Source: Dictyostelium discoideum (taxonomy: Eukaryota). From it: a DNA stretch of 64,000 nt. The notes beneath the pieces are model-generated. The model was not told the origin of the DNA, made no database searches, and saw only the letters and a program-made list of their open reading frames with translations. Location of the stretch: the NCBI GenBank assembly GCA_000004695.1, contig CM000153.2, positions 4,896,001-4,960,000 on the forward strand, given 5' to 3'. The position numbers and the translations under genes are program-made. This document shows, one piece after another, positions 41,865 through 44,004 of this stretch. The stretch's first letter is position 1. Each line of letters starts with the position of its first letter.

Positions 41865-42615
41865 TTAATTCCAAACATCTCTTTTATATTTCCCAATTTT
41901 AATCCAATTTTCTAATAATAATTCAGCTTCTTGATCTGATTTTATATTAAAATTATTAAATTTCTTTATAATTTCAATTAAACTATTATTAATTGAATTA
42001 CCAATTTTATTTTTATTACCACAAACATAGATAATACCACCATTATTTATAATTAAATTATAAATCATTTCACCATTGTCTTCAATTAATTTATTAATAT
42101 ATCCTGATGACAAATATTCTTCATTTTGATTTTCATTTGATTTTTGTTGTTGTTGTTGCTGTGAGTATGAAATGAATAGCTTTGAAATTGTACCATCCTT
42201 TTCAAATTCTTTTAATTCATCACTATAAATATGATCCCAATCTTTTCTTTTACATCCAAAAAATAATAAACATTCACCAATATTAAATTCACTTGGTTGT
42301 TGTTGTTGTTGTTGTTGTTGATTTTGTTTTTGTTCTTGATTAATATTGTTTAAATCTTGAATTTGATAATATCTATGATGAAGAAAGGACCTAAATGGTG
42401 CTAATCCTGTACCAGTTGCAATTAATATAATTGGTGTTGATAAACTATCTGGTAGATTAAAATGATTATTACTTTTTTCAATTGAAAATGGTAAATATAT
42501 TTTATTTTCATTATTATCATTATTGTTATTATTATTTATTAGTTGTTTAAATAGTTGAATTTGATTATGCATCCAATGTGTACATAATCCAAACTTTTCT
42601 TTAATAGTATTATTA

Positions 42616-42647
<32 letters not shown>

Positions 42648-42891
42648 TATTTTAACTAAACTAAAAGTAATATGAATATTATGATTACCACTAGTAAGTG
42701 GTGAACTTGATATTGAATATTTCCTAGTTTCATGTGGGGGTATATTAATTAATATATTTTTCAATGTAATGTCACAACGTTTAAATTTACACAATAACGA
42801 TACCAAATTAATTTTATGTTCAACAATTGTATCATTATATAACTGTTTTCCTTGACCAGATGATAAATAAATTAATTTCAATCTTTCATCT

Positions 42892-42974
<83 letters not shown>

Positions 42975-43099
42975 AAATTCAGATAATATTCTTAAAAAGA
43001 ATTGTGGTGGTATATAAGATATATTTAATACCCATTTAAATAAATCAATAATTTTAACCCAATTATTTAATGGTAAATGATTAAATTTACTATTATTAC

Positions 43100-43133
<34 letters not shown>

Positions 43134-43558
43134 TTTATAAATTATATTAATTTTAATTCTTTGATTACCATCACCTAATTTTAATCTTTTTAATAATTTA
43201 TTTACTAAATCTGATTCATTTGGAGCTAATATTGATATGTAATCACCTGGTACATATGAAACATTTTCATTATTGGTTTTTATATCTAAATGATAGATAC
43301 GATTGGGTGAATTATCACCTGATAATACTTTATAAGATTCAATCCAACCAATCTTTAATTCACCTTTAAATAATCCATTTAATAAATTATTACATTCTGA
43401 AATAGTATTTTCTAAATCATTTTTTGATGTTAAGTTTTTATTAATTGTTGAATCATTTTCATTATTTTCATATTCTATTTCTAAATCGCATTCATTATCA
43501 TCATTATTAATTGTATTACTAATATTATCATTATTATTTTCACTTTTATTATTATCAC

Positions 43559-43631
<73 letters not shown>

Positions 43632-43790
43632 TAATTGATTAATTTTTTCTAATTTTTCTTTATTTCTTTCTTCAATTTTTGATACTAATTTTTTGTATTG
43701 TTCTAATTGAATTTCGTAAATATCGTAGACACATCTTATGCATCCACTACCACAACATTCATCAGTTTCGGGTGGAATTGGAGCAGTCGG
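41865..43790 (-). CDS. Oxidoreductase-like (Oxidored-like, CC-SGC-C motif) domain fused to an FNR-type FAD/NAD(P)-binding reductase, with no flavodoxin domain. The open frame runs 43790..41865 with no in-frame ATG in the first ~290 codons.
   Basis: PTAPIPPETDECCGSGCIRCVYDIYEIQLEQY matches the Oxidored-like domain signature. Downstream lie RIYHLDIKT...YVPGDYISILAPNE (FAD barrel), RKYSISSSP (RxYS FAD motif), ILIATGTGLAPFRSF (NADPH Rossmann), LLFFGCKRKD and IIYVCGNK, all interrupted by poly-Asn/Gln tracts. The only upstream ATG (43844) is in frame but separated by TAA at 43793..43791, and there is no GT/AG to splice it out. Confidence 0.7.
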
Positions 43791-44004
43791 TTAATCTTCT
43801 AATTTAAGATCTTGTTTTAATTCTTCTTCAATTTTGCCATTCATTAATTATTTATTTTTTTTTTTTGTTATTAAAGTTGGTGAAAAAAAAAAAATTATGA
43901 GAAATTGTTTTTTTTTTTTTTTTTTTTTTTTTTTAGTTTTTATTTTTTATTTTTTTATTTTTCTCTAATTTTATTTAGTTTTTTTTTATTTTTTTATTTT
44001 TTAT

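Follow-up and report, generated by a model that had tools for sequence, protein, structure and literature searches.

An intact gene for an Oxidored-like, MTRR-type reductase is probably concealed by a single-base error in the Dictyostelium discoideum AX4 reference

We analyzed a 64-kb stretch of chromosome 4 of the Dictyostelium discoideum AX4 reference (the window; G+C 21.7%), in whose coordinates all positions are given unless another locus is named. A minus-strand frame in this stretch encodes an Oxidored-like four-cysteine (Cys) motif followed by a flavoprotein reductase module, and it is interrupted near its start by an in-frame TAA. Three single-exon open reading frames (ORFs) of the window were exact matches to the AX4 proteins DDB_G0286737, DDB_G0286741 and DDB_G0286821. 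Our analysis indicates with good confidence that the frame is an intact, conserved and intron-less gene that starts at the ATG at 43844 and encodes a reductase of 659 amino acids (aa), the TAA being most probably an error of the reference. One doubtful base of the AX4 sequence would then conceal a conserved gene, and its correction would restore the 659-aa protein.

The interrupted frame and the same codon in relatives

The gene occupies 41865..43844 on the minus strand (1,980 nt) as a single exon, from an ATG at 43842..43844 to a terminal TAA at 41867-41865, and, with codon 18 taken as leucine (Leu), yields 659 aa. These limits follow from the translation and from a gene of equal length in assembly GCA_054883475.1. 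Codon 18 is the in-frame TAA (43791..43793), whose middle base is window position 43792, a T on the plus strand. Translation of the minus strand from 43844 gave MNGKIEEELKQDLKLED, a stop and then PTAPIPPETDECCGSGCIRCVYDIY, after which the frame stayed open for the remainder of its 641 sense codons. The original prediction, made from the letters of the window, stated that the sole upstream ATG lies in this frame and is cut off by the TAA, as the translation confirmed. It also gave ~290 codons without an ATG, a figure that was too low; the next in-frame ATG past the TAA is at 42572 and the ATG-free run comprises 406 codons. Neither GTG nor TTG occurs in frame ahead of 42881, and initiation at the ATG at 42572 would cost the protein its Cys motif and the greater part of the flavin adenine dinucleotide (FAD) domain. 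When the GT and AG positions were checked, GT was absent from the stretch between the ATG and the TAA, and the earliest AG past the TAA, at 43748, was located within the Cys motif. Because of these two facts no canonical intron can excise the TAA while sparing the Cys motif, and the earlier statement that the stop is not removable by splicing was therefore correct.

A homology search identified six full-length proteins that share the three Pfam domains of the window protein. One of them, P0001 (locus tag ACTFIR), is encoded at a 21.9-kb locus (L001) of assembly GCA_054859385.1 (JBTAPF010000002.1), which is labelled D. discoideum. The other five came from Cavenderia fasciculata, Tieghemostelium lacteum, Acytostelium subglobosum, Polysphondylium violaceum and one EukProt species, and the orthologs in these five dictyostelids were 525-637 aa long. 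A further locus (L002) was found in GCA_054883475.1 (CM142510.1) through the exact match of a neighboring 304-aa protein; at the position of the gene, a 659-aa product is called across exactly 1,980 nt and translates uninterrupted. The products of L001 and L002 both begin with MNGKIEEELKQDLKLED, as the window frame does, and in all three the DNA between this start and the discrepant codon was identical. At the discrepant codon itself both comparison genomes have TTA (Leu), so that the N-terminus of P0001 reads MNGKIEEELKQDLKLEDLPTAPIPP, with the same ATG as the window and Leu in place of the TAA. Both orthologous genes are called as single exons from this ATG. The gene order around the reductase was the same in L001, L002 and the window, with a BCS1-like AAA gene divergent upstream and, in L001, a 304/308-aa gene convergent downstream.

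L002 was collinear with window positions 34871-47827, apart from 5 substitutions and 12 indel events in homopolymers. Position 43792 was the sole difference within the gene and all (AAT)n tracts had equal lengths, from which we conclude that the window and L002 belong to the same clonal lineage. The near-identity to AX4 and the identical microsatellites suggest that the strain behind GCA_054883475.1 is probably AX2-214. Holland et al. (2025; PMC12745789) used long reads to assemble the genome of AX2-214, along with those of diverged tropical isolates of 'D. discoideum' or cryptic species. L001 shared 87-95% DNA identity with the window over the syntenic 22 kb and would fit one of those diverged isolates or possible cryptic species. 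Despite the species label, its divergence from AX4 far exceeds the 0.3% diversity reported within D. discoideum.

In an alignment of the seven dictyostelid sequences, the discrepant column was isoleucine (Ile) or Leu in all six orthologs, and it directly preceded an invariant lead-in of the form P-x-x-P-x-x-P...D-x-CCG-x-GC-x-RCV. A comparison of ortholog start codons had been proposed with the original prediction; every ortholog had a methionine (Met) 10-35 residues upstream of this column and none had a stop in it. The Pfam Oxidored-like match began at the restored Leu (47.3 bits). Between the window gene and L001 the ratio of non-synonymous to synonymous substitution rates (dN/dS) was 0.39 (18 synonymous and 34 non-synonymous differences). 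No further lesion was found in the window gene, and its single lesion is carried by neither L002 nor L001; the gene does not show the several or shared lesions or the relaxed constraint of a decayed pseudogene. By this comparison, the TAA is a derived state of one base that only the AX4 reference carries.

Origin of the stop codon

We consider it very likely that the TAA is a base-call or assembly error in the AX4 reference, a view that rests on the comparison above and on base rates. When Saxer et al. (2012; PMC3466296) sequenced three mutation-accumulation lines derived from AX4, they counted 1,917 single-base departures from the reference; 1,916 of these were common to the lines and were attributed to reference errors or to differences predating the experiment. 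The mutation rate of these lines was 2.9e-11 per site per generation. Li et al. (2016) had removed the variants of their parental AX4, and Holland et al. (2025) list no SNPs between AX2 and AX4 in their text. We estimate that the counts imply ~1e-4 reference discrepancies per site, and that real differences among NC4-derived laboratory strains number ~1e2 genome-wide, or ~3e-6 per site. Because discrepancies are this frequent and the mutation rate is low, reference errors should exceed real laboratory mutations by more than 10-fold, and a base-call error is favored for this reason. The 13 kb compared with L002 held four other substitution discrepancies, and at three of the four (38890, 38893 and 47104) L001 agreed with L002, making the reference the odd one out at those positions.

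The further discrepancies between the reference and L002 were at 36572, 38890, 38893 and 47086-47105, and 12 homopolymers between 35951 and 47105 also differed in length. All of these sites were intergenic, at the ends of long A/T runs.

Several points weigh against an error of the reference. The other reference discrepancies in this region are all at homopolymer edges, but the coding sequence around position 43792 is clean and free of repeats, which makes a Sanger miscall less typical at this base. The case for an error is built on comparison and on base rates, and not on AX4 reads or transcripts. The assignment of GCA_054883475.1 to AX2 is itself a deduction, and if the assignment is right a mutation private to AX3/AX4 would also fit the data.

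A nonsense mutation that really arose among the AX3/AX4 laboratory strains would make AX4 the carrier of a very recent null allele encoding a 17-aa peptide, while AX2 and wild relatives kept the gene intact. It is the sole live alternative, and we regard it as unlikely. With methionine available from axenic medium and/or MetE present, the allele could be tolerated. The unambiguous, non-homopolymer setting of the base, unlike that of the four other nearby discrepancies, speaks for it, as does the separation of AX2, if this is the strain compared, from the AX3/AX4 branch at NC4, which leaves room for a private change. The AX4 product was also absent from the protein collection, in which its 659-, 641-, 338- and 235-aa forms were all missing, a weak point since the collection equally lacks the annotated 659-aa product of L002. 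On the other hand, the remainder of the gene was identical to L002 base for base and had no secondary decay. Nitrosoguanidine typically leaves G:C to A:T changes, of which the T:A to A:T change seen here would be atypical. The prior for such a mutation in a given 2-kb gene is ~0.5%, compared to 10-30% for a reference error; the mutation rate is very low, and the differences of AX4 clones from the reference are nearly all shared (PMC3466296). If the TAA were genuine, AX4, unlike AX2, would be without this enzyme, and the base merits attention in any comparison of AX4 with AX2.

The original prediction had listed a base-call error, a recently inactivated gene, a non-AUG start and readthrough. 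The first of these is the best supported and the second survives as the rival just described, while readthrough and a non-AUG start are unnecessary because L002 and L001 have TTA and the same ATG. A real TAA that is bypassed, either by readthrough from the ATG at 43844 or by a near-cognate start after the stop (for example ATT at 43778-43776), would account for the 641 open codons of a fully conserved protein whose first ATG past the stop, at 42572, is too far downstream. A one-base error, however, predicts this open frame equally well. A programmed stop is expected to be conserved in relatives, but L002 and L001 both read a sense codon here, and the orthologs, including those of the five other species, all have Ile or Leu together with a normal upstream Met. 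Bypass was ruled out on the ground that the stop is not conserved, and we give it a very low probability. Least probable of all is an upstream exon with the true start spliced in past the TAA: short 5' introns are frequent in Dictyostelium and an ATG is present at about 44130, but splicing rescue of the frame was ruled out by the GT/AG positions (the AG at 43748 lies inside the invariant CC-x-x-GC), the PTAPIPP right after the TAA belongs to the conserved domain, and the orthologs in L001 and L002 are single-exon genes. Even taken jointly, bypass and splicing have at most a very small probability.

Architecture, affinity and possible role of the reductase

With a reference error as the preferred reading, the restored protein begins with an Oxidored-like domain (PF09791) at residues 18-57 (43674..43793, minus strand, as for all features of the protein). 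This domain scored 47.3 bits with Leu restored and 45.8 bits in the window ORF, where it corresponds to residues 1-39 after the stop (cut-off 24). It was followed by FAD_binding_1 (87 bits, cut-off 32.3) and NAD_binding_1 (45 bits, cut-off 22; 42012..42425), in that order. No flavodoxin family was matched by Pfam in the window protein or in the scanned dictyostelid proteins. These matches and the motif positions upheld the original description of an Oxidored-like CC-SGC-C motif joined to FAD (RxYSIS) and NADPH (GTGLAPFRSF) binding domains with no flavodoxin domain. The proline-rich lead-in and the CC-x-x-G-C-x-x-C-V-[YW]-D motif near the N-terminus are also found in stand-alone homologs. The four-Cys motif, CCGSGCIRC (43731..43757; C30, C31, C35 and C38), was invariant in the seven dictyostelid sequences; counted from the first codon after the stop, the invariant positions were C12, C13, G14, G16, C17, C20, V21 and D23.

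The C-terminal part of the protein, residues 164-659 (41868..43355), was delimited by profile match and Foldseek as an MTRR-type, FNR-like module with FAD-binding, connecting and NADPH-binding parts. The cofactor motifs RxYS[IT]S, GTGxAPF, the Cys of YVCG and the C-terminal D-V-W are all present and are invariant or nearly so. The FAD motif R-x-Y-S-I-S-S (RKYSISSSP, 42699..42725; R356, Y358 and S359 invariant) aligned with PRPYSCASS of human methionine synthase reductase (MSR). NAD_binding_1 contains GTGLAPFRSF (42384-42413), and YVCG (42000-42032) comes just past this domain. The C-terminal YKRDVWN (41868..41888; D638 invariant) aligned with RYLQDIWS of human MSR and forms a D-V-W tail, which in CPR and MSR provides the tryptophan that stacks on FAD.

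A profile built from the seven dictyostelid sequences was searched against PDB sequences and against 1.84 billion representative proteins. The best PDB match was human MSR, 2qtl (E 8e-89, 302 bits), with profile positions 148-581 aligned to MSR 118-539. The next matches were the reductase domains of CPRs, NOS and P450-BM3 at 160-203 bits, with CPRs at ~190-200 bits, and the sulfite reductase flavoprotein at ~129 bits. PR-x-YS, G-x-GTG-x-APF, FFGC[RK], YVCG and the C-terminal D-[VI]-W-S were conserved in the MSR alignment. A Foldseek search with the AlphaFold2 model of the T. lacteum ortholog also gave 2qtl and 2qtz as the top matches, at 28% identity compared to 21-22% for CPRs. Among the 1.84 billion representatives there were five full-length matches, all dictyostelid (796-898 bits). 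The next tier, at <=304 bits, covered only profile positions ~140-581, and its named members were all methionine synthase reductases (mollusc, sea urchin, fish, hemichordate and Pythium). When the 73 nearest non-dictyostelid relatives were scanned with Pfam, all 73 had FAD_binding_1 and NAD_binding_1, 49 had Flavodoxin_1 and none had Oxidored-like; the CC..GC..C motif was likewise found in none of the 145 best non-dictyostelid representatives. Residues 246-693 of Pythium MTRR aligned with T. lacteum 109-524, and Pythium residues 1-245, the flavodoxin domain, had no counterpart. In a neighbor-joining tree of 459 columns, 56 of 60 bootstraps placed the dictyostelid proteins, MTRRs and one diflavin protein on one side of a split, and CPR, P450-CPR fusions and sulfite reductase on the other.

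By sequence and predicted fold, the reductase module is of the MTRR type, and the lack of the defining flavin mononucleotide (FMN) domain sets the protein apart from canonical members of the MTRR family. The earlier statement that this is not a CPR/NDOR1 or MTRR layout holds for the architecture, which lacks flavodoxin, but not for the FAD/NADPH module, which is MTRR-like in its PDB matches, fold and nearest relatives. The protein may represent a flavodoxin-less variant of MTRR, so far found by these searches only in Dictyostelia.

The module aligned end to end with the FAD-binding, connecting and NADPH-binding module of human MTRR/MSR (2QTL/2QTZ), with shared motifs and ~26-28% identity. In MSR, however, an N-terminal flavodoxin (FMN) domain binds to methionine synthase and passes the electron on to cob(II)alamin, whereas the dictyostelid protein has in its place the Oxidored-like Cys4 motif of ~40 residues, a helix and a low-complexity linker. 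CPR and NDOR1, represented in D. discoideum by RedA/RedB and RedC, share the superfamily FNR-like module and the cofactor motifs, but they scored ~100 bits below MSR, and the window protein has neither their flavodoxin domain nor a membrane anchor. E. coli Fpr and free flavodoxin form the bacterial two-protein system for MetH reactivation. Like Fpr, the window protein is an FNR-type NADPH:FAD reductase with no fused FMN domain and, if it serves MetH, would need a separate one-electron carrier; unlike it, the window protein retains the diflavin-reductase connecting domain that is missing from Fpr, a minimal two-domain FNR. The N-terminal part resembles OXLD1 and the stand-alone PF09791 proteins in its proline-rich lead-in and its CCxxGCxxC[VI][WY]D...Y motif followed by a helix, but these proteins are small (56-85 aa among the matches) and lack a reductase module. 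Human OXLD1 has been reported to be mitochondrial, in a study of mitochondrial protection in cardiomyocytes (PMC12413873). The N-terminus of the window protein is acidic and hydrophilic, has no membrane anchor and, on our reading, gives no hint of a mitochondrial presequence.

Gonzalez-Kristeller et al. (2008; PMC2257935) listed redA and redB (CPR-like) and redC (NDOR1-like) as the diflavin reductases of D. discoideum; the window gene was not among these three, and no canonical MTRR was reported there. Zhang et al. (2009; PMC2667541) placed D. discoideum among the B12-utilizing eukaryotes, all of which have MetH, and its cobalamin-dependent methionine synthase is included in a published tree (PMC4523565). 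Since D. discoideum has MetH and no reported canonical MTRR, the window gene is an obvious candidate for the MTRR role, and the most economical hypothesis for these sequences is that it is the dictyostelid counterpart of MTRR. The product would be a soluble NAD(P)H- and FAD-dependent reductase of 659 aa in which an Oxidored-like Cys4 motif and a long helix are connected through a low-complexity linker to the MTRR-type FAD/NADPH module. NAD(P)H would reduce FAD by hydride transfer, and single electrons would then pass to a partner that replaces the FMN domain, which may be a carrier distinct from the enzyme or an entity bound to the Cys motif. A plausible physiological role, and one that we infer, would be the reductive reactivation of the cobalamin-dependent methionine synthase.

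An MTRR-like role is purely inferential, and some points argue against it. The FMN domain through which MSR contacts methionine synthase is absent, the Cys motif has no known cofactor, and the sampling of the neighbor-joining tree left out NDOR1 and NOS. The missing FMN domain also raises the question of the electron route to cobalamin. As a tentative proposal, to which we give a rather low probability, dictyostelids might reactivate MetH with a flavodoxin-less MTRR in which the Cys4 motif takes the place of the FMN domain, through a metal or iron-sulfur center or through a recruited carrier. If this were true, it would be the first function for the widespread Oxidored-like/OXLD1 motif, that of an electron-transfer or docking module for flavoenzymes. 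The gene offers a genetically tractable entry to this motif.

Some further features of the protein were noted. In ISYSQ (42159-42173) the arginine (Arg) of the 'S-R' motif is replaced by glutamine in D. discoideum, P0003 and T. lacteum and is retained in the other three dictyostelids. This Arg binds the 2'-phosphate of NADPH in CPR-type reductases, and its replacement could affect the preference for NADPH versus NADH. Four poly-asparagine tracts of 11-26 residues (43560-43631, 43101-43133, 42894-42971 and 42609-42647) lie in the linker and the FAD-binding domain, the last three of them interrupting the FNR-like module. They were equal in length in L002, shorter or absent in L001 and absent from the other dictyostelids. 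The AlphaFold2 model of the T. lacteum ortholog had a mean predicted local distance difference test (pLDDT) score of 74, with the Cys motif below 50 and a 35-residue helix after it.

Stand-alone Oxidored-like proteins and the upstream region

Pfam describes PF09791 as N-terminal in 'various oxidoreductase-like proteins'. When the N-terminal 55 residues were used as a profile, all proteins retrieved were small (56-85 aa) and had PF09791 alone; they came from a plant, eukaryotic metagenome contigs and bacteria, and the eukaryotic metagenome 'protein' is probably a first exon. Neither this search nor the scan of the best relatives revealed the fused Oxidored-like and reductase architecture outside Dictyostelia. 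In three bacterial metagenome contigs (L008 4623-6249, L010 2400-4026 and L011 35-962), an 82-aa Oxidored-like ORF and the 3' end of a gene for an FAD-linked oxidase (FAD_binding_4/FAD-oxidase_C) overlapped by 8 nt. The 8-nt overlap suggests translational coupling with the flavoenzyme. Another bacterial homolog (P0180) precedes a DDAH-like gene instead. The bacterial neighbors thus hint at a connection of Oxidored-like proteins to flavoenzymes, in a context that is inconsistent between lineages.

Upstream of the reductase gene, the AT-rich intergenic region at 43845..44454 separates it from the divergent BCS1-like AAA gene, whose first ORF starts at 44455 on the plus strand, and is presumed to be a bidirectional promoter region. 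Two tandem duplications were detected there, one at 44025-44112 with a unit of ~50 nt (95% identity) and the other at 44348-44431 with a 42-nt unit (93%).

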